From a virus, in the IMG/VR virus record IMGVR_UViG_3300027861_000006, positions 1-38,629 of that record: a stretch of DNA of 38,629 nt, one strand, 5' to 3'. The notes beneath the pieces are model-generated. The model saw only the letters and a list, made by a program, of their open reading frames with translations. It made no database searches and had not been told where the DNA came from. The position numbers and the translations under genes were made by a program. Positions 4,572 to 38,629 of the stretch are shown piece after piece; within the stretch, counting starts at the first letter, position 1; each line of letters starts with the position of its first letter.

Positions 4572-4587
4572 ATTACCACCTTCATAA

Positions 4588-14596: not shown

Positions 14597-15146
14597 TGGA
14601 TATCTCCCCGCATTCTAAAACTCTATGGAATTTATTTGCAATATTAACATTACCCTTTGTGAGCAACTTCTTTTTTAACGTCTTGCTACAATTCTCACTA
14701 TGCATTGCATGAGATAATACATAGTAGAGTTGTTGTATTATTTGCTTATCATCATAGCCGCCCTTTAAATCTCCACAGTGTAGGGGCATACATGAGAAAT
14801 CTAAATTCGAATCACTCAAATTCGAACCTCTCAAATTCGAACCTCTCAAATTCGAACCTCTCAAGTCCGAATAACTCAAGTCCGAATAACTCAAGTCCGA
14901 ACCTCTCAAGTCCGAATAACTCAAGTCCGAATAACTCAAGTCCGAACCTCTCAAGTCCGAACCTCTCAAATTCGAACCTCTCAAATTCGAACCTCTCAAA
15001 TTCGAACCTCTCAAGTCCGAATATCTCAAATCCTTATTTTCTTTAATCGCATCCAGCAGACATCCTTTTGTTGTTTCAAACTCCCCACTATGAATAACTA
15101 ATCCGTTATCCCATCTTTTGATTTCTTCATAGAGTTGTTTCATCAT
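14589..15146 (-). CDS. Pentapeptide-repeat protein (16 consecutive [DN]L[RS][GY]S units)
   Basis: DLRYS DLRGS NLRGS x3 DLRGS DLSYS x2 DLRGS DLSYS x2 DLRGS NLRGS x2 NLSDS NLDFS, flanked by non-repetitive N- and C-terminal domains. Confidence 0.85.
   Translation of the reverse strand: MMKQLYEEIKRWDNGLVIHSGEFETTKGCLLDAIKENKDLRYSDLRGSNLRGSNLRGSNLRGSDLRGSDLSYSDLSYSDLRGSDLSYSDLSYSDLRGSNLRGSNLRGSNLSDSNLDFSCMPLHCGDLKGGYDDKQIIQQLYYVLSHAMHSENCSKTLKKKLLTKGNVNIANKFHRVLECGEISID
14801..15025. repeat. Tandem array of 15-bp units (three near-identical unit types) encoding the pentapeptide repeats
   Basis: Units tcaaattcgaacctc / tcaagtccgaataac / tcaagtccgaacctc lie back-to-back with no spacers. Confidence 0.95.
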
Positions 15147-21138: not shown

Positions 21139-21571
21139 AGACTTCATATACCAACTAATTTCGTTCGGCGGCTATTCAAGAAAGCTTTATCGAGAATTGC
21201 ATGATTCTTTTAACAAAGATATTGCTAATACAAGAGAGGTCGTTGCACAGGCAAAGGCTGCTGAAGATAATTATAACAAGAAGCCTACTAGATTTTCGGT
21301 TATCGAGGCGTTTGACGCTAATAGCCCTGAATTTCAAAAGCAGATCCTTGAGCTTTCAAAGAGTGCTACCTTTAGATGGTTAGTTTTTTCTACTGAGCAA
21401 GATGTCTACGACATGATGAACAATGCTACAGGTGAAAAAGCTGTTGAGATTATGGGAATGTCAAAAGGATTACGTTATTTCAGGACTGTAATTGATGGTA
21501 TTTGTAAGAGCCGACAAGAATTTGCGGCAAAAGCTGAATTCCAAAACAATAGCGGGGCTGAAATTGACTAA
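21128..21571 (+). CDS. Hypothetical virion-module protein (147 aa)
   Basis: Overlaps the portal stop. Confidence 0.5.
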   Translation: MRLRDFIYQLISFGGYSRKLYRELHDSFNKDIANTREVVAQAKAAEDNYNKKPTRFSVIEAFDANSPEFQKQILELSKSATFRWLVFSTEQDVYDMMNNATGEKAVEIMGMSKGLRYFRTVIDGICKSRQEFAAKAEFQNNSGAEID

Positions 21572-21917
21572 GAAGTACAGTTACCACGATTATAAGCTTC
21601 CTAGCAAAAAGCCGTTGCCTGAGGATATAAATCAGATAGCTACAGATATTGCTACTAGGCTAGACACTACAGGAAAACTATTAAAACTTATGACTTACCC
21701 TGAAAGCAATAAAGCTTTTGGCAATATCAATTATATAAACCCTGCTACTATGAGACTTGAGGCTACATTTGAGTATCATAGCGGTATGGTGAAGCTTATC
21801 AAGCTTGTTAAGTACATAGACGATACAGCTTCTCACTTTATGCAGACGATTAAGAATAATAAAATTGAATTTAGAACTGAGGCTCAAATTAATAAGTCTC
21901 GAAATGCAAATAAATAA
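21492..21917 (+). CDS. Hypothetical virion-module protein; start uncertain (ATG 21495 or TTG near 21563)
   Basis: ORF overlaps the upstream gene by up to 80 nt. Confidence 0.45.
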   Translation: MMVFVRADKNLRQKLNSKTIAGLKLTKKYSYHDYKLPSKKPLPEDINQIATDIATRLDTTGKLLKLMTYPESNKAFGNINYINPATMRLEATFEYHSGMVKLIKLVKYIDDTASHFMQTIKNNKIEFRTEAQINKSRNANK

Positions 21918-21937
21918 CTCTTACAGGAGAAAATGAT

Positions 21938-23005
21938 ATGGCAGATGAAATAGAATCAGGAGAAGTGGACCAAGAACAGCAGGCCCAAAGCTTTTTTGTT
22001 GACCAAGATACTGGTGAACGTGTTGACTCTACGCCTAGTGCTGAAGAAGCACAAGAAAAGCCTTTAGAAGCGGAGGCTGCCAAAGAGCCTGACGCTAAAG
22101 AAGCACCAACGGATACAACCGAAAAAGAAAACGTAGAAGACCCTTTTAATTTCATGGATACGGCAGAAGATGGTTCTAAATCATTTAATGCTCTTTCTGC
22201 TATGGAGTTTTTAGAAGGGGCAGGACAGAAGCAACCAACTTATGGCGAGGCTTCTCCAAGGGCGGCAGAGGCGGCGCAAAACGCTGACCCTCTAAATCCA
22301 CAAGGAGCGGCGCAAGAGCCTGAAAGGAGTCTGGTAGAGCTTGCAAGGGATAACGTAATGAGTTTCCCTAATTACATGCAAGGTTACATAGACCAAGGGT
22401 ACAGCATCGATCAGGCATACCAGTATGCTAAACAGGCTGTGGAAAACGATTTGACTTCCTTTGAAACTACTAACCGTTATGAAGAGATGGAAAAGCGGTT
22501 AGAAGAAAAGTTCAGTGGAAAGCAGACCGAAAGAACCCATCAAGAGGAAATGGCGGCATTAACTCCTGTATCTACAAGAAATCTACACGAGGTCGCAAAG
22601 GCTTCGGGATTAGGATCTGTGGAGAAATTACAAAGTGCTTTAGTGAACCCCGAATATGGTGGTAGAGCGATTCAACACTTTTTTCAACAAAGTATTGGAG
22701 ATACTAAATTTGAGTCAACCGAAGCGGAACAGCAAGCTATGAACGATTGGTTTGTTAAGTTTACTGCGGATAGAAACAATTTAGAGCTCTTGGCAGACAT
22801 AACAACTGCTCGAATATTTAAGGCAAACTTGCCAAAACTTACAGAAGCTATCAGGGCGGGTAAAGTCGGCCTTGATAATGAAAATAAGCGAGGTAACGGT
22901 ATGGGTAATATTTCGACACAGGGTAAAACTAGAAATAACCCTGCTACACAAAAGACAAACGAACTTGCAAATTTCTTGCATGTAAATAGTCTTGATGAAG
23001 TGTAG
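21938..23005 (+). CDS. Scaffolding protein (candidate)
   Basis: Acidic, helical, low-complexity 355-aa protein between the portal and capsid genes. Confidence 0.5.
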   Translation: MADEIESGEVDQEQQAQSFFVDQDTGERVDSTPSAEEAQEKPLEAEAAKEPDAKEAPTDTTEKENVEDPFNFMDTAEDGSKSFNALSAMEFLEGAGQKQPTYGEASPRAAEAAQNADPLNPQGAAQEPERSLVELARDNVMSFPNYMQGYIDQGYSIDQAYQYAKQAVENDLTSFETTNRYEEMEKRLEEKFSGKQTERTHQEEMAALTPVSTRNLHEVAKASGLGSVEKLQSALVNPEYGGRAIQHFFQQSIGDTKFESTEAEQQAMNDWFVKFTADRNNLELLADITTARIFKANLPKLTEAIRAGKVGLDNENKRGNGMGNISTQGKTRNNPATQKTNELANFLHVNSLDEV

Positions 23006-23030
23006 CAATAATTTATAAGGAGGCCATGTT

Positions 23031-24227
23031 ATGGCAACTCAACAGACACCTTTTGTACCTCAAGACCCTTCGGCTACAGGGTTACAGGGAAGAACAGTAA
23101 ATGATGAAATTAGAAACCTTATTCCCGGCAACTCACCGCTATTAGAGCTTGTTGCAGTTGGTGTTGCGCAAGACGGTAAAGTGAAAAAATCAGCGGGAAT
23201 GATTAGTAAACAGGCTACAGATACAGTAAGATTTGAAGCTTTCACACATACACCACCTGGCTATCTTCAGACTGTTGCAACTAAAACAAGTGCTCTTGTT
23301 TATACGTTTGCAAGTGTTGCTGAAATTTATGTTAGAATGGTATTTGAAAATACTGCTAACAAAACCGTTGGTGTAGTTTCAGCTATTTCAAGTACAAGTG
23401 TTACTTTTACCTCTATTGGTTCAACTGCCTTTTCTGCTGTTGCAGGTGACGTTTTAATGCGTCTTGGTAACGCTTATGAAGCCAATTCAAGCGATCCTGC
23501 TTACTTGCAGAAAGACGATGATAACATTTACAATATGTGTCAGACTTTCCGTTTTCCAACAGCAGCTTCAAATTCACAGATTGCTACAAAACAGGTTGCA
23601 GGTGGAGATTTCTTTCAGAGAGCTTCTAAGTATGCAATGATTGAAGGTATGCGTGATATTGAAAGAGCGTTTCTTTTTGGTAAAAAATCTTCAAGTGGTA
23701 ATACTACTGAGATTAGTGATATTAGTAAAAACGTAGCGACTACTGAAGGTCTATGGAATCAGTCAGGTGTTGTATTTGATGCAGGTGGAAACATGACTCC
23801 GTCAAAGCTCTTTAAGGATATTCCAAACAAAATGGACTCTTCTGTAGGCGATATGGACCGTGTTATTATGCTGACTTCTAAGAAACAGCGTACTAACCTT
23901 CTTGAACAGCAGCAGGACAGTATTCGTATTGACCAAAAATCTGATCCTAAAGAATATGGTGTTAAAATCCCAATGTTTATGACAGGTGGACCAAACATTG
24001 AAATTCGTTCGCATGATGCGTTTAACAATGCAGGACACGAAGACGAAGGACTTATTTTCCTTCCTGAGCGTCTTAAATATCGTTACCTTAAAGGTAGAGA
24101 TATTGCACCAAACAAAGATATTCAGTCTAATTCTACTGATGGTAAAATTGACGAAATCTTTGGTGAAGTTGGATTGCAGAATGACGATGGTGGTGTGTCA
24201 ATAATGAGACTTATTAACATGTCTTAA
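23031..24227 (+). CDS. Major capsid protein (candidate)
   Basis: 398 aa. ATG lies 7 nt after AAGGAGG. Directly follows the scaffold-like gene and is followed by the clearest intrinsic terminator in the window. Confidence 0.7.
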   Translation: MATQQTPFVPQDPSATGLQGRTVNDEIRNLIPGNSPLLELVAVGVAQDGKVKKSAGMISKQATDTVRFEAFTHTPPGYLQTVATKTSALVYTFASVAEIYVRMVFENTANKTVGVVSAISSTSVTFTSIGSTAFSAVAGDVLMRLGNAYEANSSDPAYLQKDDDNIYNMCQTFRFPTAASNSQIATKQVAGGDFFQRASKYAMIEGMRDIERAFLFGKKSSSGNTTEISDISKNVATTEGLWNQSGVVFDAGGNMTPSKLFKDIPNKMDSSVGDMDRVIMLTSKKQRTNLLEQQQDSIRIDQKSDPKEYGVKIPMFMTGGPNIEIRSHDAFNNAGHEDEGLIFLPERLKYRYLKGRDIAPNKDIQSNSTDGKIDEIFGEVGLQNDDGGVSIMRLINMS

Positions 24228-24233
24228 TTAATA

Positions 24234-24262
24234 GCCCTCTTGAAATATAGGGGGCTTCTTTT
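24234..24262 (+). terminator. Intrinsic terminator after the capsid gene
   Basis: GCCCTCT-tgaaatat-AGGGGGC (one mismatch) followed by TTCTTTT. Confidence 0.65.
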
Positions 24263-24285
24263 AAATTTCTAAATGGAGAAATGAA

Positions 24286-24786
24286 ATGAAATCAATAAAA
24301 ATCTTTTTGGTAATGGCTGTTTTCGCTTCTATTGCTTTTGCAGACGCACTTGCAGATATAAGTGTAAGTGCAGTTCCTGAATTTGACAGAAATAACAACG
24401 ATGTTGTTTCGGCTGATGCGTTGTATGATACGCTTTCGGGTGCTGACACTTCAATCATGTTCACAGACTTTGTTCCAACAAGAGGTTGGGAATACATTTT
24501 AGTAAGAGACGCTATTACTGGTACAGGAGCCGATTCCGCTTATTATTACCTGCAGGTTGACTGCAAGGATGCTAAGAGGGGTAACGTGCTTTACACGGCT
24601 AATATCGATACTATAGACGGTGCTGCAGGGGTTGCTAATATTATACCTTTTGGCAATACTCTAATTGGTACAGCGTTTGATATTCGACTTGTTGGTATTT
24701 CGGGTAGTACAGGTTTTCAGGCGATTGTGAATAGAGCAATGCTTTATCGCAGACGACCAAGAACAATCTTTAAAGCGTGGAATTAA
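24286..24786 (+). CDS. Predicted secreted protein (166 aa) inside the virion module
   Basis: Sec-like N-terminus MKSIKIFLVMAVFASIAFA/DALAD. Basic C-terminus. Confidence 0.6.
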   Translation: MKSIKIFLVMAVFASIAFADALADISVSAVPEFDRNNNDVVSADALYDTLSGADTSIMFTDFVPTRGWEYILVRDAITGTGADSAYYYLQVDCKDAKRGNVLYTANIDTIDGAAGVANIIPFGNTLIGTAFDIRLVGISGSTGFQAIVNRAMLYRRRPRTIFKAWN

Positions 24787-24840
24787 TTAATAGGAGGGTG
24801 TAAAAGCCCTCTTTAACATAACCTTTAAAAAGGAAAAAAA

Positions 24841-25398
24841 ATGTCAAAAGAAAAAAAAGAGATCAAGTATGTTGTGGCTGCAAAAAGCTTTAGCATTATT
24901 GTTCAGATTAAAGACGAAAAAGGTAAAAAGGTAAAGGATGTTGATTCTGAAACAGGTGTTCAGAAACGTGTTAATCGCACTCCTCAATTCCATGAAGACC
25001 TTGTGGACATGAAAAATGTTATCGATAGTGTTAAAAAAGGTTATCTCTGTGAATACAATGTTACAGAAGAAACACCTAATTACATCGCAGACGCTTTTAA
25101 AAAGTGTGCGGAAAATCGTTCTCATCCAGTTATAACTTATGATACTTGGATCAAAGAGAATAATCCTGAACGTCATGCAGAGATGGTTAGAGCAGATCAG
25201 GCCGAAAAAGCTGCTGCTGAAGCTTACGAAAAAGGTAAAGCTGAAGGTCAGACAGGCGATATCAAAAAGCTTACTTCTGAAAAGAATACTGCTGAAATAG
25301 CTGTTGAAAATCTTACAAATGAAGTTGCTGAAAAAGACGAAACTATTGCAGACCTTCAGAAAAAGGTTGCTGAAATCGAAAAGAATGCAGGTAAATAA
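24841..25398 (+). CDS. Hypothetical virion-module protein with a coiled-coil C-terminus
   Basis: 185-aa ORF. ATG after AGGAAAAAAA. Confidence 0.55.
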   Translation: MSKEKKEIKYVVAAKSFSIIVQIKDEKGKKVKDVDSETGVQKRVNRTPQFHEDLVDMKNVIDSVKKGYLCEYNVTEETPNYIADAFKKCAENRSHPVITYDTWIKENNPERHAEMVRADQAEKAAAEAYEKGKAEGQTGDIKKLTSEKNTAEIAVENLTNEVAEKDETIADLQKKVAEIEKNAGK

Positions 25399-26111
25399 TG
25401 CCTAACAATCAACCTTTATACAGTGAGATTAAAGCTCGTTTAGAGGATTGGCTACAGAGTTCGGGGGGCAGTGTTGTACTGCTGCCCCTTGACCTTTTAA
25501 ATAGGGCGCAAGACGATTTGACGCTACATAAGCAATGGTCTAATATGATGTTTACAGAGGCTTTAACACCTGTTGAAGGAGAGCCTAGAACCTATTCTAT
25601 GCCTGACGGTATGGCTTCTTATCAAATTATCTCTTCAGACCATGACGGAGATGGAAAGCCTGACGAATACTTTTACGACAGGTCTAACCAAGTTAAGGGC
25701 TATAAAGTTGAAGATAGATTTGATATTACTACAGGCCATGCACACGTAATTCTTTTTTATAGAGACCCAAGTGTGCTACCTAATGTTTATTATCAAAAAG
25801 CTTTAACTGACTTTCAGGATACAGACACTCCTCAATACTCGTTCTTTCCAAGTGAACTACTTTTAAGAACTGCTCAAAAGATTCATATTGAAGAAACGGG
25901 GCTTACAAGCTCCGAGGTGACTGTTATTTTAAATAGCCAAAAAACTTTGTTAAAAAATTATACTGCTATTCATCATAACGTGAATACAGATCTGAAAATG
26001 GAAATACTAGACTACGAAGGGCATCCAATACAGACAGAAGCTATTAACCTGACAGGTTGCTTTGATGGCGACCCTGATTATTACAAAGGGCAGGATAACA
26101 GTGTCTTATAG
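25398..26111 (+). CDS. Head-tail adaptor / tail tubular protein A position (candidate)
   Basis: Assigned only by position, directly upstream of the gp12-like gene. Confidence 0.35.
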   Translation: MPNNQPLYSEIKARLEDWLQSSGGSVVLLPLDLLNRAQDDLTLHKQWSNMMFTEALTPVEGEPRTYSMPDGMASYQIISSDHDGDGKPDEYFYDRSNQVKGYKVEDRFDITTGHAHVILFYRDPSVLPNVYYQKALTDFQDTDTPQYSFFPSELLLRTAQKIHIEETGLTSSEVTVILNSQKTLLKNYTAIHHNVNTDLKMEILDYEGHPIQTEAINLTGCFDGDPDYYKGQDNSVL

Positions 26112-29534: not shown

Positions 29535-29831
29535 ATGAAAAAAACAATAATAAATCTAACCCCTTCTCAAAACTCCCTTCAAGGCCAATTCTCGAATGGA
29601 GATGATCCTTTAGTAATGTGTGACGCAACTAATGGAGATTTCTCTATTACAATGCCTGATGCACCGTCTACAGACGATTCAACTTTTAGATTCGTTAAAA
29701 AAGACGACTCATTAAATACTGTAACTCTTGTTGCAAAATCTGGTCAAAAAATTATGAATGAAGATTCTCAAATACTAACAGAAGAAGCAGATGAGCTTGT
29801 TTTAAACTCAGATGGAATTGGTTGGTGGTAG
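29535..29831 (+). CDS. Small fibre-associated protein (98 aa)
   Basis: The ATG begins 2 nt after the fibre stop codon. The upstream extension to 29448 overlaps the fibre gene and is not needed. Confidence 0.5.
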   Translation: MKKTIINLTPSQNSLQGQFSNGDDPLVMCDATNGDFSITMPDAPSTDDSTFRFVKKDDSLNTVTLVAKSGQKIMNEDSQILTEEADELVLNSDGIGWW

Positions 29832-29832
29832 T

Positions 29833-30792
29833 ATGAATAAGTTACTTTTCATCTTATCAGTAATCCTTACTTGTTCTCAAACGCCTTTATATGCAACTAA
29901 ATACGGTAGTGTAAAGCTTTGGGACGGTGACACTATTGTAAATGTTAGCGATAGCGCTTTGAAAGTTTATACTGACGATACATTGAATGTTGCCATAGCG
30001 GACACTATTGTTGTTAGAGTTACCGATACGCTCGAAGTTAATTCAATTCCTAAAGACTACTATTTAGAAGTTGCCAAGGGTAATGTTGCAGGCGCATCTA
30101 AGGTGAATAAGTTTGGGCATAATCCTACCGCTACCAGTGGCGATGATATTTGGGGCGGGGGTGGTGTTTACGTTTTTTTTCCTGACACTGCAAGAACGAT
30201 GGAAATACTTAGCACTTCGGCGCTTGACGATGAAGGAAGCACAGGGGCTATTCAGGTAAGGGTAAAAGGACTTGATTCTAACTGGCTTGAAATAGAGGAA
30301 ACCGTAACTATGAACGGCACTACTCCTGTATCTTTGACAAATAAGTTCGTTCGAATGTACAGGGCTTTTGTTCTTGAAGTAGGATCGGCAGAAACCAACG
30401 AAGGGGATATTACCGTTGAAATTGTTGGAACGGATACGGCTGCTATTTTTATAAGTGCCGATGAAGGCCAAACGCAACACGCTATCTACACCGTTCCTGA
30501 AGATAAGACCGCTTACTTTTTAAAGGGGTATGTGTCATTGACTAATAGTAATAAAAATGGTGAAGATGGAACATTCCAATATTACGTTAGATTAAACAAT
30601 GGATATCAGAGTGCTTGGCTTGTTAAAGGCGAGGTGGGCTTAGTTAATATTGGTTCAAGTTACTGGCAATATGAATATGCCGTTCCAGCAGGGCCTATAC
30701 CCGGCAAATCAGACATTAAGATTCGACTTACAGACGCAAGTGCGACAATGAACACACAGGCAGGGTTTGATCTCATTTTAATAGATAATTAA
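29833..30792 (+). CDS. Lipoprotein-like beta-rich protein (receptor-binding/structural candidate)
   Basis: N-terminus MNKLLFILSVILT/CSQ (lipobox-like). ATG 29833. Confidence 0.55.
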   Translation: MNKLLFILSVILTCSQTPLYATKYGSVKLWDGDTIVNVSDSALKVYTDDTLNVAIADTIVVRVTDTLEVNSIPKDYYLEVAKGNVAGASKVNKFGHNPTATSGDDIWGGGGVYVFFPDTARTMEILSTSALDDEGSTGAIQVRVKGLDSNWLEIEETVTMNGTTPVSLTNKFVRMYRAFVLEVGSAETNEGDITVEIVGTDTAAIFISADEGQTQHAIYTVPEDKTAYFLKGYVSLTNSNKNGEDGTFQYYVRLNNGYQSAWLVKGEVGLVNIGSSYWQYEYAVPAGPIPGKSDIKIRLTDASATMNTQAGFDLILIDN

Positions 30793-30805: not shown

Positions 30806-32908
30806 ATGGCAGTAGCAACAACCGCAGTTAGTACAGAGGCAAAGAAGCCTATTGTGAATTTCCCAACAGTTCAGCCAAACCAGCCTATACCATTGCTTCC
30901 AAATGCAGTGCAACAACCAGTACGCCAACAGCCTGCTGTAATGCCTCAAATACAGCAAGCGGGAGCAGCTACAGGTGCAGGGCAAGTATTTCAGCCTAAC
31001 CTAAGTAAACAGGTGGTCGAGACAGCTCAACAGAAGGCTATACAGGGCACTCCAAGCCAAACAGCTAGTTTAGTGTCCCAAAACGCTCAAAACCTCTTAA
31101 AAGACCCTTCCATGGGAAAAGATTACGACGCTCAAAAAAAGCTTTCTATGGATCAACTTGCTAAACAACAATCTTCTGATTTAGAAAAATTAAGACAGTC
31201 TACAGGTGGAACGGCTAATCTAGGCTTTAATATTGGAAACCTTGCTTCTGCTCAACTACAGCAAAGGCAGGAGAAAACAAATTTATCTCAACAAATGGAT
31301 ATTGACGCACAGCAACAAAAGCTATCTGATGGTTTAGCGGCATTGACCGCAGGACAGCAAACTGTAGGCATGGAACAAAGTTTACAGTCGGGTGATATTG
31401 ATAATCTTATTAAGACATCTGATGGAGCGCTCTCTTTTGCGGAACTCGCTTCTAAAGAGAATATGTTTACAAGTCAGCAGGAATGGGATACTACAGAGTC
31501 TCAATTGCAAAAAGATTTTGAAATGGCTATGACTCAAGGAGATTACGCACAGGCTAATAAGCTTGCTGCTCTGATGAACGACTTTGAGACTGCAAAGCTT
31601 AAGAATCAGCAAGAGTGGCAGAGTGCTGAAAACATTGCTCAAAATGCTTTTAAAAAAGGTATGGTTATGAATGAACAGGAATATGACAAGGCCAAACAAT
31701 ACCTTGCTTTTGAGTTAGAGCAAGCTGCTGCTGACAATGACTTTGAGAAGCACCAGTATCTAATGGACAAACAGCAAGAACTTGATTTACAAAACATGCT
31801 ACAGAGCTTTGACTTTAATAGTAAAATGGCGGTTCTTGATAGTGAGCTACAAACTGCAATTAATAATAACGACTTTGAGCATCAGGCTATTCTTAATAAG
31901 TTTACCCACGGCCTACAAATGCAACAGATAGAGCAAGAGCAAGGTTTTGAAGAAAGTATGAAGTATCTTGATAACGAGCTTGAACTTGCATTGCAGACGG
32001 GCGATTATGAAAATGCTAAAATGCTAAACCAAATGAAGTATGATCAAGAAATGTCAATACATCTTGATAATATGGAGCTTGCTAATATGAAGCTAGATAT
32101 GGAGCAACAGGGCCTTGATATGGCAATGGTTGAAAGTGAATACGAAAAGCTACAAGCTGAAATTGCAGCAGGCAGAGTAGACCCAAGTGCTTCAGTCGAT
32201 TATTTGGAACAAGTTTTTGCAGACTCTTTACCTGAAGGCTTTGAGTTTACAGAACCCGATCCTTATGCCGTACAAGCTGCTTTGAAAGACGATTACCTTA
32301 ATAAGATGTATCAGTATGGCTTAACTCAGGGTGAGGACGCTATGGTGTTTGAAACAGTTACTAATCCTGATGGAACGACTACTGAAGCTTTTGCAGGTTT
32401 GAATGACTCTTATTTAGGTTCCTTTAATGATTACGTTAATGACACTACTTATGCACAAACTGGTACACCTGATGAGGCTGAAATCATCGCGCTTAAAGCG
32501 GGTGACATGCCGATAGACCAAATGGAAAGCAAACATTTCGATTACCTACTTAATGACGTAACCACACCTGAAATCGACTTAGGCATATATCAAGATTACG
32601 CAACACAGGAGGTTGGCTCAGGTAGTAGTTCAAGAACAATTTACCCTGAACTTGAAAACAATGTTGGAGGCTTTACGAATATTGGAGGCGTATTATTTAA
32701 CGTGCAATCAAAATCTATTCTTGATGAGGGTGGTGATGATGTTACAGTTTACAATATCGTAGACGTAGTAACAGGCCAAACCATTGAGATAGCTGCTGTT
32801 GAGAGTGGTTCAACAAGTGCCGACCTTAATTCTCATGGTAATAACGAGCTCCATACATACTTGGAAACAATCAAAAAAGACCCTTATTATGCAAGTAAAG
32901 GAGAATAA
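30806..32908 (+). CDS. Q/N-rich 700-aa protein with repeated [GN]D[FY][EA] helical motifs and an acidic Tyr-rich C-half; internal/ejection protein candidate
   Basis: Q-rich N-terminus. Repeats GDYAQANKL, NDFETAKL, NDFEKHQYL, NDFEHQAIL and GDYENAKML. Confidence 0.6.
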   Translation: MAVATTAVSTEAKKPIVNFPTVQPNQPIPLLPNAVQQPVRQQPAVMPQIQQAGAATGAGQVFQPNLSKQVVETAQQKAIQGTPSQTASLVSQNAQNLLKDPSMGKDYDAQKKLSMDQLAKQQSSDLEKLRQSTGGTANLGFNIGNLASAQLQQRQEKTNLSQQMDIDAQQQKLSDGLAALTAGQQTVGMEQSLQSGDIDNLIKTSDGALSFAELASKENMFTSQQEWDTTESQLQKDFEMAMTQGDYAQANKLAALMNDFETAKLKNQQEWQSAENIAQNAFKKGMVMNEQEYDKAKQYLAFELEQAAADNDFEKHQYLMDKQQELDLQNMLQSFDFNSKMAVLDSELQTAINNNDFEHQAILNKFTHGLQMQQIEQEQGFEESMKYLDNELELALQTGDYENAKMLNQMKYDQEMSIHLDNMELANMKLDMEQQGLDMAMVESEYEKLQAEIAAGRVDPSASVDYLEQVFADSLPEGFEFTEPDPYAVQAALKDDYLNKMYQYGLTQGEDAMVFETVTNPDGTTTEAFAGLNDSYLGSFNDYVNDTTYAQTGTPDEAEIIALKAGDMPIDQMESKHFDYLLNDVTTPEIDLGIYQDYATQEVGSGSSSRTIYPELENNVGGFTNIGGVLFNVQSKSILDEGGDDVTVYNIVDVVTGQTIEIAAVESGSTSADLNSHGNNELHTYLETIKKDPYYASKGE

Positions 32909-32911
32909 ATA

Positions 32912-33457
32912 ATGATAGTAATAACAGGAGCCCCAAGAACAGGCACAAGTATGATAATGCAGACTCTCAAAACATTGGGAGTTGAAGTTGTAGGTGAAAA
33001 GTTTAGTGATGTTAATATGCCTGAAAACAACCCTTATGGATATTATGAACTTCCCATTGCAGAAATTACAGAGGGCATTCAAGATTTACGATACAAGGGC
33101 AAAGCCGTAAAACTTTTTGCGCAAGGCTTGGGTAAAACAAAAGTAGATGCAATCGACAAAGTGATCCATTGTAAACGCAAGGTGAAAGAGTCGGCTTTAA
33201 GCTTTATGAAAGTGTTAAAAGCAACTCCAATAGGAATTAAGCCTACGATTAATAACTCTAAACAGATAGTTAAACACAATGCACTTTTTGCAGAAACTTT
33301 TGCTAAACACACTAAGAAACCAGTGTTTAATGTAGATTTTGAAAATTTCAAATCTAATAAAATTGAAGAGATAGAAAAGTTATGTAGTTTTCTCGGTATA
33401 GAAGCCACTGCTGCTCAGAAGTCCGAAGCAATAAAAAATATAAAGGACGGTAAATAA
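32912..33457 (+). CDS. Small sulfotransferase-fold protein (181 aa)
   Basis: 5'-PSB loop IVITGAPRTGTSMIMQTL. 3'-PB-like CKRKVKESALSF (R-x7-S). C-terminal VDFENF..N...EIEKLCSFLGIE resembles the sulfotransferase tail .YEDL......l..i..FLGl (from memory). Confidence 0.6.
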   Translation: MIVITGAPRTGTSMIMQTLKTLGVEVVGEKFSDVNMPENNPYGYYELPIAEITEGIQDLRYKGKAVKLFAQGLGKTKVDAIDKVIHCKRKVKESALSFMKVLKATPIGIKPTINNSKQIVKHNALFAETFAKHTKKPVFNVDFENFKSNKIEEIEKLCSFLGIEATAAQKSEAIKNIKDGK

Positions 33458-33891
33458 TGGGAATTGCAGCAGCGATAATAGCGGCAGGAGTAGGTGTTGC
33501 TTCAACAGTGGCAGGTGCGGTAGGTTCTTCACAGACCGCAAAAGCGCAAGAAGAAGCTGAAGCTGAAAGACTTGCAAAAGAAGAAGAAGAAAATGAGAAA
33601 ATGCGCAAAGAGCGAATTAGGACACAGCGTCAAGAGGGCATAGGTATGCTCGCACAAGAGAGGCAAAACGCTACAACACAAAGTAGAAGCCGATCTTTTG
33701 GGAAAGATGCAAAAGCTGCTTTAAGCAATGTTAGCAAACGGGGTAGTGCTCCACAAGCTCCTGCTCCCGCAATAACTCCACAGGCTCCACAAATGCCAAG
33801 TAGAGGTGCTCCACCTCCGATGCCATTAGGCAACCCAAAGCCTATAACACCCGTTGCGGGATTACCCACATCAACGATTGGACGGAGGTAG
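33457..33891 (+). CDS. Gly-zipper TM plus Pro-rich protein; small internal virion protein candidate
   Basis: MGIAAAIIAAGVGVASTVAGAVG N-terminus. PQAPAPAITPQAPQMP tail. ATGA-coupled start. Confidence 0.55.
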   Translation: MGIAAAIIAAGVGVASTVAGAVGSSQTAKAQEEAEAERLAKEEEENEKMRKERIRTQRQEGIGMLAQERQNATTQSRSRSFGKDAKAALSNVSKRGSAPQAPAPAITPQAPQMPSRGAPPPMPLGNPKPITPVAGLPTSTIGRR

Positions 33892-33894
33892 CAT

Positions 33895-35115
33895 ATGTCA
33901 CAAGCAAGTAGAGGGGCAGCATTAAGCTATATCGCCCAAGCAGTACCAAGGGTAACACAAGATGTTATTGGCAAGGTACAGGCAGGCAGAGACCGTAAAG
34001 AGGACATGAAGGATAAGGAACTTGAAAGAAAACTGTCTCAAGGCCGACTTGATGCAATGGGACGGCAAGCCACTATAGACGAGCAAAACATAGATACAGG
34101 CGATCGCAAAGCAGAGCAACGTAAAAAAGCATCTGACCTTAACACGAAAATTCAAGCCGACATTTTTGCAGAAGAAATAAAAGTTAATAAGAAAAAAGCT
34201 CTCGATACTGAGCTTGGAAAAATGTCGAAAGAGAAGCTGCAGGTTGAATATGGAGCGGACAATTTAGCGCAAGCCAAAGAATTAGCTTACACAGAAATCG
34301 ATCTGCCTACAGGTGCAACAAAAGAAGATATTGTTAAAAAGTATCGCAATGAAATAGAAGCGCTACAATTTACTGACCCTACTATGCAAGGGCGTATGGC
34401 AGGGATAACCCAAAGGACCAAGAGGGCAGAAAAAAAGGAAGATATTGAAGGTGAAAAATTATTTAGTCAGGGTGAAGGTGCGGTTGATTATGCTAGATCT
34501 GTAGAGTCTCGAGAGGATAAGCAAGAGTTTGAGAGTAGTCAACTGAATAAACGACTTTCTGCACAAGAGAGAATGAAAAAGATAACCAGTGGAGAAGCTG
34601 ACGCTGAAACTAGCGACATACCAGATTTAAAGCCGATTAGTAATATTGCCATTACAAAAGATTCTGTTAAGAGGGTAAAAGAGGCTTATCCTATGATTAA
34701 AGGTGTCTCAAACGAGATCAACGGGCTAAAAGACCTGTACAACAAGGTAGGGATTGAATTAGTTGGTGCTGATGCTGCAAGGTTAAAGTCAAAAGTAAGG
34801 AAAATTCAGCTACAGTTGAAATCGAAAGCCTTTCTCGACCTTGGTGTTCTTAACGGTCCCGATTTAGACTTGCTTGAAGAGGTAGTGCCTGATCCATCAA
34901 CCTTGAAAGCAGGCGCAAAAAAAGCAGCTTTCGGAAAAGTGTTTGAAGGGCAGTTAGGCGAGCTACTTGATTTTGTCGACAGTAGGGGCGAGATGTTCTA
35001 CAGAGCAAATGGTTTTGAGGCTGACAACAAAGGTGTTACGGGGCAAGCGTTCAACTCTACGCCTGTTCAATCAGGAATGTCAGATGATGATTTCAACGCA
35101 GCGTGGGGAGAATAA
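33895..35115 (+). CDS. K/E-rich helical 406-aa protein; internal virion protein candidate
   Basis: Position and composition only. Confidence 0.5.
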   Translation: MSQASRGAALSYIAQAVPRVTQDVIGKVQAGRDRKEDMKDKELERKLSQGRLDAMGRQATIDEQNIDTGDRKAEQRKKASDLNTKIQADIFAEEIKVNKKKALDTELGKMSKEKLQVEYGADNLAQAKELAYTEIDLPTGATKEDIVKKYRNEIEALQFTDPTMQGRMAGITQRTKRAEKKEDIEGEKLFSQGEGAVDYARSVESREDKQEFESSQLNKRLSAQERMKKITSGEADAETSDIPDLKPISNIAITKDSVKRVKEAYPMIKGVSNEINGLKDLYNKVGIELVGADAARLKSKVRKIQLQLKSKAFLDLGVLNGPDLDLLEEVVPDPSTLKAGAKKAAFGKVFEGQLGELLDFVDSRGEMFYRANGFEADNKGVTGQAFNSTPVQSGMSDDDFNAAWGE

Positions 35116-35117
35116 CA

Positions 35118-37853
35118 ATGCCTACACAGCAAGAATTTATTGCAAAAGCTAAACAAATGGGTAAAAGTAAAGAGGAAACTCTTGCTAAAATGCGTGAGCT
35201 GGAAGGTAGAGGGTATTTTGATACCCCCGAACCCCAAGACCTAACCCCCGAACCTATTGAGCGTGAAGAGTCTGTACCATTGGTAAAGCAGGCTATTAGT
35301 GCAATTAGCAAAGGTGCTACTGCTACAGGTAAGTTTTTAGGCGGCTCTATCGCTCACCCAATCGAAACAAGTAAAGGGCTTGTAAAAGGCATAGGTGAAG
35401 CAGGAGTTGGCGATATTGGGCGGGGTACTGCTGCAATGCTAGGCTCGGTTATACCCGGTGAAGATCGTTTTGAAAAAAGAGCAAGAGATTATAAAGACAA
35501 AGAGTTTTTTCCTGCAAGTGGTGAAGTTCAAGAAAGAGCGAAGCCTGTAGGTCAATTTGGCGCTAAAATGGGTGCAGGTGCTGCATTAGCCTCTACCTTA
35601 CCCGCAACTGCCCCCGCTGCCGCTGTAGCTTTGGGCGGTGGAGCATTGGCGAATGTTCCGTTTTTACCTCAAGCTTTTACAGAAGGTGGTGCAGAGGGCG
35701 CAATTAAAGACATTGCATTAAACACAGCTATCGATTTAGCCACTTTTGGAGCAGGAAAAGCTATTCCGGGGATTAAAGCTGCTTTACTTAAAAAAGGCGT
35801 AAAAGGGCTTGAAGCTGATAGGATTGCAAAAGAGGCTTTTGAAAGAGCCACAAAATTACCAAGTGCAAAAACGGTAAAAACCACCGCTGGAAAGGGTTTT
35901 AAGCTAGCACCTGACACCCCTGTTAAAGATGGTGTAGAGCAAGTTGGAGAGGATATTTTAAAGAGTTCAGCACCCGAGAAAACCCTTGGAGAAAAGACAT
36001 TAGGTCGCATCTCCGAGTCAGACAGGTCTATTTTATCAGAGCCATTATTAAAAACTGAAACACCGTATAATGAATATGCTCAACTAGCAGAGTCAGCCGT
36101 TAAAAACCCTAGAAACCCAACCCCAATGGATGTCGCGGGTCGTAGAGGTTCAGAGGCTCTTGATATAATTGACGAGAAACTATCCTCTGTTGGCGCTAGA
36201 AAGCAAGAGCTAATGGATAGGGCGGTGAATAAGACTATTAATGTTGAATCTACCCAAAAGCGTTTTAATGACTTAATTGAGGACAGGTTGGGCTTAGAAG
36301 TAACCGAAAAGGGCGCTTTAAAAGGGGCGGGTCGTGCGCCAACCGAAAAGAAACTTATAGAAGAGGTTAATGACCTTTTAAGGTCTGTAAAAGGCGAGGT
36401 AACTATAAAGGATGCCGATAATATCAAGGCAGCATTAAGAGACATTGTAGACGCTCCTAAGTCGTTTCAAGTACAGCCTAGAAAAACTATAACCGAGTCC
36501 ATTGTAAATACTGTTAGAAAAGATATTGATGATAAACTTATTCAACAAATTGGCCCTGAATTTAGAAAGGTAAATAAGGAATATGCTGACGCTATTGATT
36601 TAAGTAGTTTTCTGAATAAGAAATTAGGGGCTGTTACTGACAAAGGCACAGGTCAGAGGATAATGGGTGCTTCTCTTCTTAAATCATCTCTACAAAGTAA
36701 CTCAGATAGAGGTTCTAAGGCTTTATTTGACAGAGTAAAAAAAGAGACAGGTATTGACCTTATAAAAGATGCTAAATATGCGGAAATAGCTATGCAGGCG
36801 GTGGGTGATGCTAGAATTAAGAATTTACTTGAAGAGGTTGGGGTTAAGTTACCGGGTAAAGCGGGGGCTATACAAGAGTTAGGTTCAAAAGCTTTAGATA
36901 TAGCAAGACCCGACAGGTTAAGTGAAACCGTTAAGTTTTTCAATAAACAACAGCAAAAGCGTAGCGGAGATGTGTTGGGAAAAGCTGCTTTGCCTGCTCC
37001 TCCACCTTTTAGGCTTCCTAATCCACTTGGGAACCAGAGGGGGGCTGTTGATATTGGGACTAATATTAAAAATATTGAGAGAGAGGCAAAAAAATTCAAG
37101 ACGCCAAGAGAGTTTATTAATGCACAAAAAAAAGACTTTCATGGTACTAGTCAGAAGTTTGATATTTTTGATGCTAGTCAGCTAAATAAATCAACAAACA
37201 CTTTAGCAGGCAAAGAAGGGTTTTGGTTTACCAGTTCGGCAAAAGAGGCAGGTGATTATGCGCAGCTCTCAGGAAAGAGACTAGCTAAAGACGAAGTTGC
37301 CTTTGAGGCAATGAGTAAAAGGTTAGCAAAATCCCTAGAAAATGCAGAAAAGGCAAGGGATTTTGATCTTGTAGATAATATTACTGCTCAAATAGAAAAG
37401 CATGAGGCATCCTTGTTTTTAGAAAAACCAGAGAGTTTTGTAAAAGATGCTTTTCTTGTAACTAAAAAGCCTAAAATTGTTAATATGGATGGTAAAAACA
37501 GCACGCAGGGAGCTTTGTCTGAAATAATATCTAAAGCAAAAAAAGGGGGGCATGATAGTGTTGTTTTTAAAAACATATCAGATAATCCAGTAGATGCAAG
37601 AGTTAAAACTGACCAAACAATAGTGTTTTCTCCTGACCAAATTAAAACGGAAAAAGAACTGTCAGATATTTGGAACAATGCTCAACGCACAGGAAGCGCA
37701 GGTAACATAAGAATGAACGCAATGCTCCCCGCAACAGGATTAGCAGGAGCAGGAGTACTAACAGCAGGGCTCAAAGTCGAACAAGGCAAGAAAAAGCAAC
37801 AATTAACAAGAGAACAAATGCAGAAACTAGCGCAATCAAGAAGAGGTAATTAA
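35118..37853 (+). CDS. Large (911-aa) ejection/internal-core-type protein with a C-terminal ART-like domain
   Basis: ATG 35118 after GGGGAG. Largest gene, in the gp16-like position. A/G-rich hydrophobic patches. C-terminal FHGT...FDIFD ... GFWFTSS..A.DYA ... GHDSVVF ... TIVFSPDQIK. Confidence 0.6.
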   Translation: MPTQQEFIAKAKQMGKSKEETLAKMRELEGRGYFDTPEPQDLTPEPIEREESVPLVKQAISAISKGATATGKFLGGSIAHPIETSKGLVKGIGEAGVGDIGRGTAAMLGSVIPGEDRFEKRARDYKDKEFFPASGEVQERAKPVGQFGAKMGAGAALASTLPATAPAAAVALGGGALANVPFLPQAFTEGGAEGAIKDIALNTAIDLATFGAGKAIPGIKAALLKKGVKGLEADRIAKEAFERATKLPSAKTVKTTAGKGFKLAPDTPVKDGVEQVGEDILKSSAPEKTLGEKTLGRISESDRSILSEPLLKTETPYNEYAQLAESAVKNPRNPTPMDVAGRRGSEALDIIDEKLSSVGARKQELMDRAVNKTINVESTQKRFNDLIEDRLGLEVTEKGALKGAGRAPTEKKLIEEVNDLLRSVKGEVTIKDADNIKAALRDIVDAPKSFQVQPRKTITESIVNTVRKDIDDKLIQQIGPEFRKVNKEYADAIDLSSFLNKKLGAVTDKGTGQRIMGASLLKSSLQSNSDRGSKALFDRVKKETGIDLIKDAKYAEIAMQAVGDARIKNLLEEVGVKLPGKAGAIQELGSKALDIARPDRLSETVKFFNKQQQKRSGDVLGKAALPAPPPFRLPNPLGNQRGAVDIGTNIKNIEREAKKFKTPREFINAQKKDFHGTSQKFDIFDASQLNKSTNTLAGKEGFWFTSSAKEAGDYAQLSGKRLAKDEVAFEAMSKRLAKSLENAEKARDFDLVDNITAQIEKHEASLFLEKPESFVKDAFLVTKKPKIVNMDGKNSTQGALSEIISKAKKGGHDSVVFKNISDNPVDARVKTDQTIVFSPDQIKTEKELSDIWNNAQRTGSAGNIRMNAMLPATGLAGAGVLTAGLKVEQGKKKQQLTREQMQKLAQSRRGN

Positions 37854-38254
37854 TGAAAACTTACATAACTTTCCACTACAACGACCTAGGAAGATCAAAT
37901 CTTGTAATTTACAAAGATGGGGAAAAAATCAACTCCTTTCCTGCAAGAACTGGTTCTGTGCACGAAGCCCTTTGTAATCCTATCAAACAAGGCGTTTGGT
38001 ACATAAAAACCCCTCACGAAAAAACCACCGAAAAAGGAATGATGATTGAAGGGTTTAATATTTCTTGGAAAACTAGATTGTATAATTCTGAAAAAGAATA
38101 CACCCGTTACCTAATTCACCCCGATGGAAATAAACCCGGCTCTTTAGGCTGTATAGTTACCCCCGGCATGGAATTAGAGCTAAGAGACCTTATAGATAGC
38201 CTTTTAAAAGAAGTGGACGAAATACCCGTTTACGTGAATGTGAGCCCAAGATGA
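37853..38254 (+). CDS. L,D-transpeptidase-fold (Tlde1/DUF2778-like) peptidoglycan enzyme; endolysin candidate
   Basis: LIHPDGNKPGSLGCIV resembles a shortened YkuD H...S.GC motif. FPARTGS...NPIKQGVWYI also fits the family (from memory). TAATG coupling to the upstream gene. Confidence 0.55.
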   Translation: MKTYITFHYNDLGRSNLVIYKDGEKINSFPARTGSVHEALCNPIKQGVWYIKTPHEKTTEKGMMIEGFNISWKTRLYNSEKEYTRYLIHPDGNKPGSLGCIVTPGMELELRDLIDSLLKEVDEIPVYVNVSPR

Positions 38255-38629
38255 ACCAAGCGTTAAAGCAAGATCCAACAAAGTTATATGTCGCTTTCCA
38301 CAGAGGTGGCAAAAGTGACCTGAAAACAAGGCTAGTGTCTGCAATGTGTAAGATTTTTACCAATAGCGATTATCGAGAAGGGAAAAAACTAGGAATTAAC
38401 GACACTCGTTTTGCACACACAGAATTAATCTTCCCTAGATCTATTGCAGAAGATAAAAGGTGCTACTCTTCAAGAGGTACTGACGACCCAAGCGGTGTGA
38501 GCTTTAAGGACATAAAATTTTCTCACCCTGAAAGATGGACTTTTGTTGAAATTAAATGGATTAAAAATTATGAGGATATTCTTGCAACATACAATACATC
38601 AAAAAAGTATGTCGGCTGCAGGTATGCTT
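38251..38629 (+). CDS. 5' part of the junction-spanning permuted NlpC/P60 (YiiX/C92-like) ORF (continues at 83-261; 185 aa in total)
   Basis: ATGA overlap with the upstream stop. Runs off the window end in phase with position 1. Confidence 0.5.
   Translation, partial: MNQALKQDPTKLYVAFHRGGKSDLKTRLVSAMCKIFTNSDYREGKKLGINDTRFAHTELIFPRSIAEDKRCYSSRGTDDPSGVSFKDIKFSHPERWTFVEIKWIKNYEDILATYNTSKKYVGCRYA
38548..38629 (+). repeat. Right copy of the 82-nt exact terminal overlap
   Basis: Identical to 1-82. 38548 is in codon phase with position 1. Confidence 0.95.

Follow-up and report, generated by a model that had tools for sequence, protein, structure and literature searches.

The window analyzed here, the whole 38,629-nucleotide (nt) stretch of IMG/VR record IMGVR_UViG_3300027861_000006, carries a gene for a 181-amino-acid (aa) protein that, judged from sequence profiles and a predicted structure, is very probably a stripped-down sulfotransferase (ST) belonging to a large, uncharacterized family. 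We favor the reading, to which we assign a probability of roughly 0.55, that ST is a catalytically intact, minimal enzyme of the PAPS-using type and that it serves podoviruses as an accessory enzyme with an acceptor that many infected cells have in common.

The ST gene occupies positions 32912 to 33457 of the plus strand (as do, on the same strand, all features described below), opens with an ATG, and encodes a 21-kDa product, and the ORF named in the original prediction is real. A spurious ORF was ruled out by the conservation of the gene across more than 4,000 clusters, in which it is clearly under purifying selection. Its start lies 3 nt past the stop of an upstream 700-aa ORF, within the end of which a Shine-Dalgarno sequence, AAGGAG (32898 to 32903), can be read 8 nt 5' of the ATG. 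At the other end, the stop codon TAA (33455 to 33457) has only its last A in common with the ATG of the following 144-aa gene (33457 to 33459), giving a TAATG junction with a 1-nt overlap (33455 to 33459); the ATGA junction originally described is incorrect, but this overlap is still compatible with the translational coupling that had been proposed, and ST is probably coupled in this way to the downstream late gene. Because of the 3-nt gap on the 5' side, the 1-nt overlap on the 3' side, and the lack of any terminator-like site on the plus strand from position 30142 to the end of the window, we infer that ST is cotranscribed with the late tail and ejection-type genes of this phage and would be expressed late; promoter and terminator scans of the window gave matches at chance level only.

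Two Pfam models match the protein above their gathering scores, namely, Sulfotransfer_3, which is its best Pfam family (38.2 bits against 27), and Sulfotransfer_1 (33.8 bits against 22). The AlphaFold (AF2) model is confident (pLDDT of 91.8, pTM of 0.88), and when it is compared to the PDB with Foldseek, the best 50 matches are all PAPS sulfotransferases (probability of 1.00, E values down to 2e-6, TMq of 0.53 to 0.66). Likewise, the best 60 matches of a family profile to PDB sequences consist only of sulfotransferase-fold chains (best E value, 1.6e-9), the matches including TPST1/2, CurM-ST, and StaL; the profile is needed for this result, as the single ST sequence returned only noise from the PDB sequences. 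Both computational checks suggested with the original prediction, by HMM and by AlphaFold with Foldseek, thus bear out the assignment. A generic P-loop kinase, the alternative that it had named, was rejected: the loop GAPRTGTS lacks the Walker A pattern GxxxxGK[ST], and kinase and AAA models score far below threshold (AAA_28, 15.1 bits against a gathering score of 27; AAA_18, 13.5 bits against 29.4). In the fold searches, kinases rank only below the sulfotransferases. PHROGs and NCBIfam contain no family for ST or its neighbors, and PADLOC, which holds models of known antiphage defense proteins, gave no meaningful match to ST, its one match (36 residues and 17.6 bits to a restriction-enzyme model) being absent from two other family members.

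Residue conservation, scored over 129 diverse representatives of the family, shows that the motifs originally singled out were correctly placed and are not chance resemblances. In the profile alignment, R9 of the 5'-phosphosulfate-binding (PSB) loop, GAPRTGTS (residues 6 to 13; 32927 to 32950), falls on Lys48 in the SULT1B1 motif PKSGTT; among representatives that include the N terminus, R9, G11, and S13 show little or no variation. The 3'-phosphate-binding (3'-PB) motif, K88-R89-x7-S97 (33173 to 33202), aligns with 'KVVYVARNPKDVAVS' of SULT1A3 and 'KIIYIVRNPKDTAVS' of SULT7A1, such that R89 and S97 fall on Arg130 and Ser138 of both enzymes; R89 is present in all 129 representatives and S97 in 128. 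In SULT1B1 and SULT1A1, the counterparts of the FLGI motif in the penultimate helix (residues 160 to 163; 33389 to 33400) are 'RFLEK' and 'EFVGR' (around residues 208 to 216 in the alignment); F160 is Phe or Tyr in 126/129 representatives, and the C terminus of ST lies about 18 residues past FLGI.

Two further elements are conserved throughout the family. Lys67 (33110 to 33112), present in 129/129 representatives, ends a strand (residues 65 to 67) that directly precedes the 3'-PB strand, and the strand order in the AF2 model would place it topologically, though not by alignment, at the position of SULT1E1 Lys106. The second element is a family-specific motif, N40-P-x-G43-Y-Y-E46 (33029 to 33049), which is a candidate for the acceptor side and the catalytic base and which has no sequence-level counterpart in solved structures: N40 is present in 92% of representatives, G43 in all 129, and position 46 carries an acidic residue in 116/129 (93 Glu, 23 Asp). 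In characterized enzymes, the catalytic Lys is Lys106 of the SULTs, and the catalytic base is His108 in SULTs and Glu in TPSTs and heparan sulfate sulfotransferases. Position 69 of ST is neither His nor conserved, and no His stands at the position of SULT His108. A profile built from the first 105 residues and compared to the PDB in order to align K67 and E46 matched no sulfotransferase, which leaves E46 unaligned with the catalytic Glu of TPSTs and heparan sulfate sulfotransferases as well; because this N-terminal profile aligns with no solved sulfotransferase, the equivalences of K67 and E46 to known catalytic residues are topological only.

The original description of ST as much shorter than typical family members also holds, in that its structural matches are 280 to 300 aa long (TM scores of 0.6 by query and 0.4 by target) and that, of the 255 positions of the Sulfotransfer_1 model, only positions 4 to 193 are covered. 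ST lacks the N-terminal ~40 and the C-terminal ~65 to 70 residues of cytosolic SULTs, and when the two are aligned, the phage protein runs out at about residue 228 of SULT1B1. Missing with this C-terminal portion are the cofactor contacts equivalent to SULT Thr227/Phe229 and Arg257-Lys258-Gly259. What is retained would be little more than the core responsible for nucleotide binding and catalysis (SULT residues 41 to 229, roughly), the lost segments at the two ends being those that close the acceptor pocket and cap the cofactor in cytosolic SULTs. In solved sulfotransferases, the C-terminal elements touch the adenine and the 3'-phosphate, and in their absence the PAPS affinity or the identity of the donor could differ in ST. 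To our knowledge, an architecture of ~165 to 220 aa is shorter than that of any characterized sulfotransferase.

This loss of the cofactor-capping elements found in all solved sulfotransferases would also suit a protein that is inactive as a sulfotransferase, i.e., a degenerate PAP(S)/nucleotide-binding or kinase-like protein in which the fold and the phosphate-binding residues are kept for some other role, as would the lack of a His at the SULT base position, the N-terminal half that cannot be aligned to solved enzymes, and the appearance of nucleotide kinases lower in the search of viral folds (BFVD). We regard this as highly improbable: the residues binding the phosphosulfate and the 3'-phosphate, together with the catalytic Lys, do not vary across more than 100 diverse sequences, pointing to retained chemistry, the loop reads P-R-x-G-T-S rather than Walker A, and the leading PDB fold matches are sulfotransferases without exception.

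In the intact enzyme that we favor, R9 and the PSB loop would hold the 5'-phosphosulfate, R89 and S97 would hold the 3'-phosphate, and K67 would stabilize the leaving group. Because no His is available at the SULT His108 position, E46 of the N-P-x-G-Y-x-E motif is proposed to be the base, as is Glu in TPSTs and heparan sulfate sulfotransferases. PAPS would be drawn from the host pool, since no PAPS synthesis gene was detected in the window phage. Most likely, the acceptor would be a molecule found in many infected cells, such as an envelope precursor, a metabolite, or a conserved host protein, and not a virion protein particular to one lineage. The open active site would favor a bulky or macromolecular acceptor, and subfamilies could have different acceptors despite their common catalytic residues.

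Among known systems, cytosolic SULTs (Sulfotransfer_1; SULT1A1, SULT1B1, SULT1E1, and SULT7A1) have the same alpha/beta fold as ST (Foldseek E values of 2e-6 to 1e-4, TM scores of 0.55 to 0.66 on the query), and their 5'-PSB loop, 3'-PB Arg-x7-Ser, and 'YYEDMKxxPxxEIxKIxxFLG' region all align with it; ST differs in being about 110 residues shorter, in lacking the acceptor cap loops, the RKG contact to the 3'-phosphate, the KTVE dimer motif, and the catalytic-base His, and in having Arg for Lys in the PSB loop. Sulfotransfer_3-type enzymes, comprising TPST1/2 and the sulfotransferase domains of CurM and OLS, constitute the best-matching Pfam family, the ST profile recovering TPST1/2 at an E value of about 1e-6 and CurM-ST at 1.6e-8. 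The PSB loop of TPSTs carries Arg (P-R-x-G-T-T/S), as does that of ST, and the base of ST would probably be acidic rather than His. The TPST, CurM, and OLS enzymes differ from ST in their length of 280 to 350 aa and in having substrate-binding clefts and cofactor contacts at the C terminus. Among cellular proteins, the closest relatives are bacterial TPR-sulfotransferase fusions (E values of about 1e-22 to 1e-24 against the family profile), whose sulfotransferase domain is C-terminal and similarly compact; these differ in being cellular and in having N-terminal TPR arrays and sometimes a phosphodiesterase/sulfatase-like domain, and they are equally uncharacterized. The best structural match in BFVD is a 183-aa protein from an "uncultured Caudovirales phage" (A0A6J7WIG0; E value of 3.5e-5, TM scores of 0.62/0.61, 13% identity). 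Annotated phage sulfotransferases, as in Synechococcus phages S-SRM01 and S-SCSM1 and in OM43-phage metagenomic genomes, are of the Sulfotransfer_3 type, like ST, and of unknown function (PMC10580990), those of cyanophages being about 280 aa long, compared to 181 aa for ST.

The ST family comprises 4,169 cluster representatives at an E value of ≤1e-3, mostly 160 to 220 aa in length, and is present at 62 loci in IMG/VR viral contigs. It occurs mainly in uncultured short-tailed phages (T7-like, crAss-like, and SU10-like podoviruses). In tblastn searches of 50,697 deposited phage genomes, neither three diverse family members nor the portal of the window phage found a match. A scan of cellular genome contigs with a narrow ST alignment yielded two relatives only, both longer, from which the family is tentatively considered rare in cells, tentatively because a single degenerate search pattern limits sensitivity. 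The remark in the original prediction that sulfotransferases are rarely described in phages is accurate for this family, given the 50,697 genomes without a match, but not for sulfotransferases at large: viromes, cyanophages, and OM43-phage metagenomic genomes all have genes annotated as such, which are listed as putative auxiliary genes to which no function is assigned (PMC10580990, PMC8290583). Automated annotation already labels the ST family as sulfotransferase.

Sulfation is well studied in eukaryotes and in a few bacterial systems, such as Nod factors, mycobacterial sulfolipids, and RaxX. A literature search found no experimentally defined role for any phage-encoded sulfotransferase, and the role of such proteins has been called unclear (PMC10580990). 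Apparently unremarked for the ST family are its truncated, ~165- to 220-aa form, its concentration in uncultured podoviruses, and the retention of all phosphate-binding and catalytic Lys residues. If active, ST would show how small a catalytic unit of this fold can be, a matter of interest to enzymology and engineering, and would point to an unrecognized and widespread phage strategy in which host PAPS is spent on a conserved target.

One distant cellular relative of ST adjoins CysD-like, CysN/CysC, and TauE genes. This clustering with genes for PAPS synthesis and sulfite export, the wide spread of the family in environmental phages, and the listing of viral sulfotransferases as putative auxiliary metabolic genes (PMC8290583) are what would be expected if ST spent PAPS on a small metabolite, either draining or diverting host sulfate assimilation or making a useful sulfated compound. 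We consider such a metabolic role very unlikely, as ST lacks the loops that form small-molecule pockets in cytosolic SULTs, no sulfur metabolism gene is coencoded in the window, and a position in a late operon would be unusual for a metabolic gene.

The portal, MCP, and adaptor of the window phage are of the SU10 type. Upstream of ST is the 700-aa protein (30806 to 32908), which has syntenic homologs 5' of ST in relatives (L001 to L007, L093, and L094) and consists of a disordered P/Q-rich N terminus, about 400 aa of alpha-helix, and a small beta-rich C-terminal domain. It has no Pfam match, its AF2 model, based on database homologs, is poor (pLDDT of 61.9), and Foldseek returns only generic helical repeats (best E value, 0.018). 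In other ST lineages, the upstream genes are unrelated to this protein, which speaks against the idea that it is a split TPR partner of ST.

Downstream, and kept 3' of ST in relatives, is the 144-aa protein (33457 to 33891), a candidate gp14-like internal protein. It had been described as a Gly-zipper internal protein, and its N terminus is indeed Gly/Ala rich and hydrophobic, but its match to T7_gp14 is weak (E value of 0.0096; 16.3 bits, below the gathering score of 27). It is followed by a 406-aa conserved protein of the ST module (33895 to 35115), a candidate ejection protein with homologs in L001, L002, and L004 and no family match, and by a 916-aa candidate ejected polyvalent protein (35103 to 37853) with an ART-PolyVal ADP-ribosyltransferase domain at residues 679 to 849 (Pfam, 44.9 bits against a gathering score of 31.2). 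This ART region is an add-on, because residues 8 to 617 align with the whole of a 636-aa homolog in L005. Last in the module is a 133-aa YkuD-like protein (37853 to 38254; Pfam YkuD, 24.4 bits against 23.4), a candidate cell wall-active enzyme whose slot is taken in L003 by an NlpC/P60 protein. That the neighbors of ST are ejection proteins is something we infer only from the subthreshold gp14 match, the ART-PolyVal domain, and gene order.

Within the window lineage, 10 of 11 relatives have ST in the same slot, between the 700-aa helical protein and the gp14-like/ejection-type genes, and its sequence is better conserved than those of the flanking genes; in one relative, L095, the flanking genes abut without it. 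Elsewhere, ST follows the crAss muzzle gene, lies in the T7-type primase-helicase/DNA polymerase (A) interval, follows a T7-type terminase, or stands beside a ribonucleotide reductase (RNR) gene; replication and terminase contexts together account for about 45 of the 62 viral loci. When the proteins adjoining ST were compared across contexts, no homologous neighbor was found, yet a nine-residue ST signature is kept in all context groups with its acceptor-side residues invariant, at identities of 36 to 46% within five defined groups versus 22 to 34% between groups. Counts of TPST-like acidic tyrosines over all window proteins, a crude test that bears on Tyr sulfation only, revealed no enrichment in the ST neighbors (the 700-aa protein has 1 versus 2.4 expected).

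These contexts weaken the functional reading drawn originally from gene placement. In one form of it, ST would sulfate a coencoded protein (the 700-aa, gp14-like, or 406-/916-aa product) during assembly, with the negative charge tuning packing, ejection, or receptor contact. The tight operon and retained slot speak for it, as do the comparable position behind the crAss muzzle gene, where cargo genes come next in crAss001 (PMC10172136), the TPSTs among the profile matches, and the fusion of the closest cellular relatives to TPR repeats, a type of protein-binding module. Set against the predominance of replication and terminase loci, the absence of a common neighbor despite invariant acceptor-side residues, the L095 arrangement, and the unenriched tyrosines, we find it unlikely, and the link of ST to ejection proteins is weak. 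Its conservation in 10 of 11 relatives and its recurrence after the crAss muzzle gene are nonetheless more than random placement and keep a virion-linked role alive. The gene in itself is no evidence for sulfated virions. An acceptor common to many cells, as in the reading that we prefer, is proposed because ST with the same signature occurs in replication, packaging, and tail-tip contexts with unrelated neighbors and because one relative lacks it; by its distribution, ST would be a podovirus accessory gene rather than a dedicated partner of ejection proteins.

T4 Alt is a packaged ADP-ribosyltransferase, and as with Alt and polyvalent-protein effectors, the ST gene lies among genes for internal or ejected proteins, with ART-PolyVal downstream; unlike those effectors, ST is a small, free-standing protein and not a domain of a polyvalent protein. 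By analogy with Alt, ST might itself be packaged, ejected with the internal proteins, and sulfate a host target at the start of infection. This would accord with its place between a putative tail/internal protein and the gp14-like/ejection-type genes, with the ART-PolyVal effector domain of the 916-aa product, which is typical of delivered polyvalent proteins, with the position of crAss-like ST at the start of the region encoding cargo in crAss001 (PMC10172136), and with a size of 21 kDa, compatible with passage through the portal and tail channel after unfolding. It is, however, decidedly unlikely in our view: ST has no recognizable targeting segment, T7-like lineages place it among DNA replication genes expressed before virion assembly, and the HNH and homing endonucleases inserted in the ST slot of crAss-like loci suggest a permissive insertion site, not one specific to cargo. 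A literature search found no paper linking sulfotransferases to polyvalent proteins, crAss cargo, or antidefense. Just as doubtful is the broader proposal in which ST founds a class of minimal sulfotransferases carried by phages and, both in the window lineage and in crAss-like phages from the environment, would either be packaged with the ejected cargo or act on it, making sulfation of a host or virion protein a part of how podoviruses initiate infection; we know of no phage for which either the packaging of a sulfotransferase with cargo or cargo-linked sulfation has been described.

Nothing was retrieved when viral contigs were scanned with the 406-aa or the 700-aa neighbor as a single protein, and a scan with a 550-aa marker alignment retrieved distant relatives with a different genome layout.

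The 181-codon sulfotransferase gene (ST; 32912 to 33457, + strand) starts with an ATG 3 nt past the stop of an upstream 700-codon ORF and carries a Shine-Dalgarno sequence, AAGGAG, at 32898 to 32903 (+). Its TAA and the ATG of the next gene have one base in common, forming TAATG (33455 to 33459) instead of the 4-nt ATGA overlap of the original prediction; the predicted motifs, by comparison, are all in place, namely, the 5'-phosphosulfate-binding loop GAPRTGTS (residues 6 to 13), the 3'-phosphate-binding motif K88-R89-x7-S97, and FLGI (residues 160 to 163). Searched against Pfam with hmmscan, ST scores 38.2 bits for Sulfotransfer_3 (gathering score of 27) and 33.8 bits for Sulfotransfer_1 (gathering score of 22), with generic P-loop/AAA models far under threshold. 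An AlphaFold2 model built on an alignment of 13 homologs is confident (pLDDT of 91.8, pTM of 0.88), and its best 50 Foldseek matches in the PDB are, without exception, PAPS-dependent sulfotransferases (E of 2e-6 to 2e-4; TM of 0.53 to 0.66 on the query, only ~0.4 when normalized on the 280- to 300-aa targets). Similarly, the best 60 PDB sequences matched by a profile of 129 family members are sulfotransferase-fold chains only (best E of 1.6e-9), TPST1/2, CurM-ST, and StaL among them. HMM and fold comparisons both uphold the predicted sulfotransferase, as opposed to a generic kinase or a protein lacking such matches, and ST is very probably a genuine sulfotransferase-fold enzyme with its phosphosulfate and 3'-phosphate sites intact.

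In residue alignments with SULTs, R9 stands in place of the Lys of the PKSGTT loop, R89 and S97 correspond to the Arg-x7-Ser 3'-phosphate motif ("KVVYVARNPKDVAVS"), and residues 137 to 165, the FLGI segment included, match SULT1B1 190 to 219. Strand 1 begins at residue 2 and the chain ends ~18 residues past FLGI; therefore, ST lacks the first ~40 and the last ~65 to 70 residues of cytosolic SULTs. A word-indexed search returned 13 homologs, every one of 160 to 187 aa, and an exhaustive profile search returned 4,169 cluster representatives at E<=1e-3 (1,308 at E<=1e-10), most of them 160 to 220 aa long, so that shortness is a family property and not a truncation artifact; the longer matches are TPR-sulfotransferase fusions. 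Among 129 diverse representatives, G43, K67, and R89 are invariant, S97 is kept in 128, N40 in 92%, and position 46 carries Glu (93 sequences) or Asp (23 sequences), while R9, G11, and S13 are (near-)invariant wherever the N terminus is present. SULTs employ His108 as the catalytic base, whereas ST has no His two residues past K67, for which reason our candidate for the base is E46, which belongs to the family-specific N-P-x-G-Y-x-E motif; some sulfotransferases are Glu dependent in this way. The role of E46 is putative, and a profile restricted to the family's first 105 residues matched no solved sulfotransferase. That ST is non-catalytic or has a non-sulfuryl function is, next to this pattern of conservation, very improbable.

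Only two cellular relatives emerged from a species-level genome scan, both longer (257 and 356 aa). One adjoins a TPR-sulfotransferase, and the other lines up with a PAPS-synthesis cassette made up of a TauE sulfite exporter, a CysD-like protein, and a CysN/CysC fusion (the 356-aa relative; contig L068, 7941 to 12721, an Elusimicrobia MAG). Judged from these sequence contexts, the cellular relatives weakly favor PAPS chemistry for the family and weakly hint at protein-directed activity; a metabolic, PAPS-consuming role for ST is quite unlikely.

The window, a complete genome of ~38,547 bp that assembled as a circle, opens and closes with an exact 82-nt direct repeat (1 to 82 and 38548 to 38629). 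Within 19291 to 26111, the + strand codes for a portal, a major capsid protein, and an adaptor that match SU10-type Pfam models, and the - strand of the genome codes for DnaB and RecT, which makes this ~38.5-kb phage podovirus-like. Among 50,697 deposited phages, tblastn found no match to the portal, and the phage's lineage is an uncultured one with a distant relationship to SU10-like podoviruses. Upstream of ST, the 700-aa protein is mainly alpha-helical in a low-confidence model and gave no significant match in a fold search. Downstream are a 144-aa protein whose N terminus is hydrophobic and Gly/Ala rich and which has a sub-threshold T7_gp14 match, a 406-aa protein, a 916-aa putative ejected protein (35103 to 37853, +), and, ending the module, a 133-aa YkuD-like protein (L,D-transpeptidase fold; 37853 to 38254, +; 24.4 bits; gathering score, 23.4). 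Between 30142 and the end of the window, the + strand has no terminator-like site. The 916-aa protein has an ART-PolyVal ADP-ribosyltransferase domain at residues 679 to 849, within its C-terminal 300 residues (44.9 bits, GA of 31.2); since residues 8 to 617 cover the entire 636-aa homolog in L005, a contig of the same lineage, and this homolog lacks the ART region, the ART module is appended at the C terminus in the window phage. In another such contig, L003, the slot of the YkuD-like protein (4239 to 4670) holds an NlpC/P60 protein, which suggests interchangeable cell-wall-active enzymes. The predicted setting among ejection-protein genes is reasonable from the gp14 and ART-PolyVal matches of these neighbors, although we infer it, and the gp14 match is sub-threshold.

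Within the window's own lineage, the order of 700-aa homolog, ST, and proteins of ~100 to 150, ~370 to 450, and ~480 to 670 aa is repeated in L001 to L007, L093, and L094. Relative to the window, ST is 70% identical in L001 (flanking proteins, 55, 62, and 44%) and 37% identical in L005 (700-aa homolog, 27%); by these identities, ST is more conserved than its flanks, and its position is, to a degree, meaningful in this lineage. It is nevertheless doubtful that ST sulfates a co-encoded virion protein; a rough screen of the neighboring proteins for acidic tyrosines of the TPST type was negative. In the more distant relative L095, 10 nt separate the 703-aa homolog from the small protein (5650 to 5700), and the family HMM detects no ST in six frames of this 10.9-kb contig. 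Because the flanks adjoin without it, ST is an accessory gene.

Scanning IMG/VR recovered 62 viral loci with ST relatives, in distinct neighborhoods: directly 3' of the crAss muzzle protein (crAss-like loci L008, L012, and L013) or after the muzzle and a 179-aa ORF (L026); between a T7-type primase-helicase and DNA polymerase A, with ribonucleotide reductase nearby (~25 loci); directly 3' of a T7-type large terminase (~20 loci); close to a different terminase (4 loci); and elsewhere (a few loci). No neighbor proteins are common to different context groups (blastp at 1e-4), and a nine-residue signature (R9, G11, S13, N40, G43, E/D46, K67, R89, S97) is kept in all of them, with ST identity higher inside five defined groups (36 to 46%) than across groups (22 to 34%). 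In crAss001, cargo/ejection genes come after the muzzle gene (PMC10172136), and therefore a tail-tip/cargo slot for ST recurs in two unrelated podovirus lineages. The majority of loci, however, are in replication or packaging modules, a distribution that does not favor the ejection-linked role originally suggested; that ST is packaged and then ejected as an effector is unlikely. We favor, at a probability of roughly 55%, an accessory PAPS-dependent enzyme whose acceptor would be common to many infected cells, as opposed to lineage-specific adjoining proteins, because phage lineages with unrelated virion proteins all keep the same acceptor-side residues and one relative does without the gene. 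Without the cap segments, the active site would be open and suited to a bulky acceptor.

HNH_3/homing-endonuclease genes occur by ST, 3' of the muzzle gene, in L012 (10513 to 11070, directly after ST) and L008 (11393 to 12154, one gene further). Mobile elements may insert preferentially in this crAss-like slot, and ST could be travelling with these endonucleases.

Phage sulfotransferase genes have already been reported as putative auxiliary genes (PMC10580990, PMC8290583), and the best viral structural match of ST is a 183-aa "sulfotransferase family protein" from an uncultured phage. Three diverse family members gave no tblastn match in deposited phage genomes, and neither PHROGs nor NCBIfam has a model for ST. 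As far as we have found, the literature describes neither a distinct, very large family of this compact architecture nor its concentration in podoviruses nor its recurrent placement 3' of tail-tip genes. ST is a well-supported enzyme with a potentially interesting target.

Elsewhere in the window, a 326-aa protein (29812 to 30792, +; phrog_8198, E of 9e-44) has a signal-peptide-like hydrophobic N terminus (MNKLLFILSVILTCSQ...), unusual in a tail gene block. The best-conserved marker of the lineage (43 to 84% identity) is a 550-aa protein (2589 to 4241, +) with no Pfam match, whose homolog in more distant relatives is followed by a ~700- to 770-aa protein, as would be the case for a large terminase and portal. 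In the early/replication region, a 15-nt tandem repeat (array at 14773 to 15078) encodes the ~18 copies of S-D/N-L-R/S-G/Y in a 185-aa pentapeptide-repeat protein (14589 to 15146, -), which has no PADLOC match and could be a DNA mimic or serve in anti-restriction.
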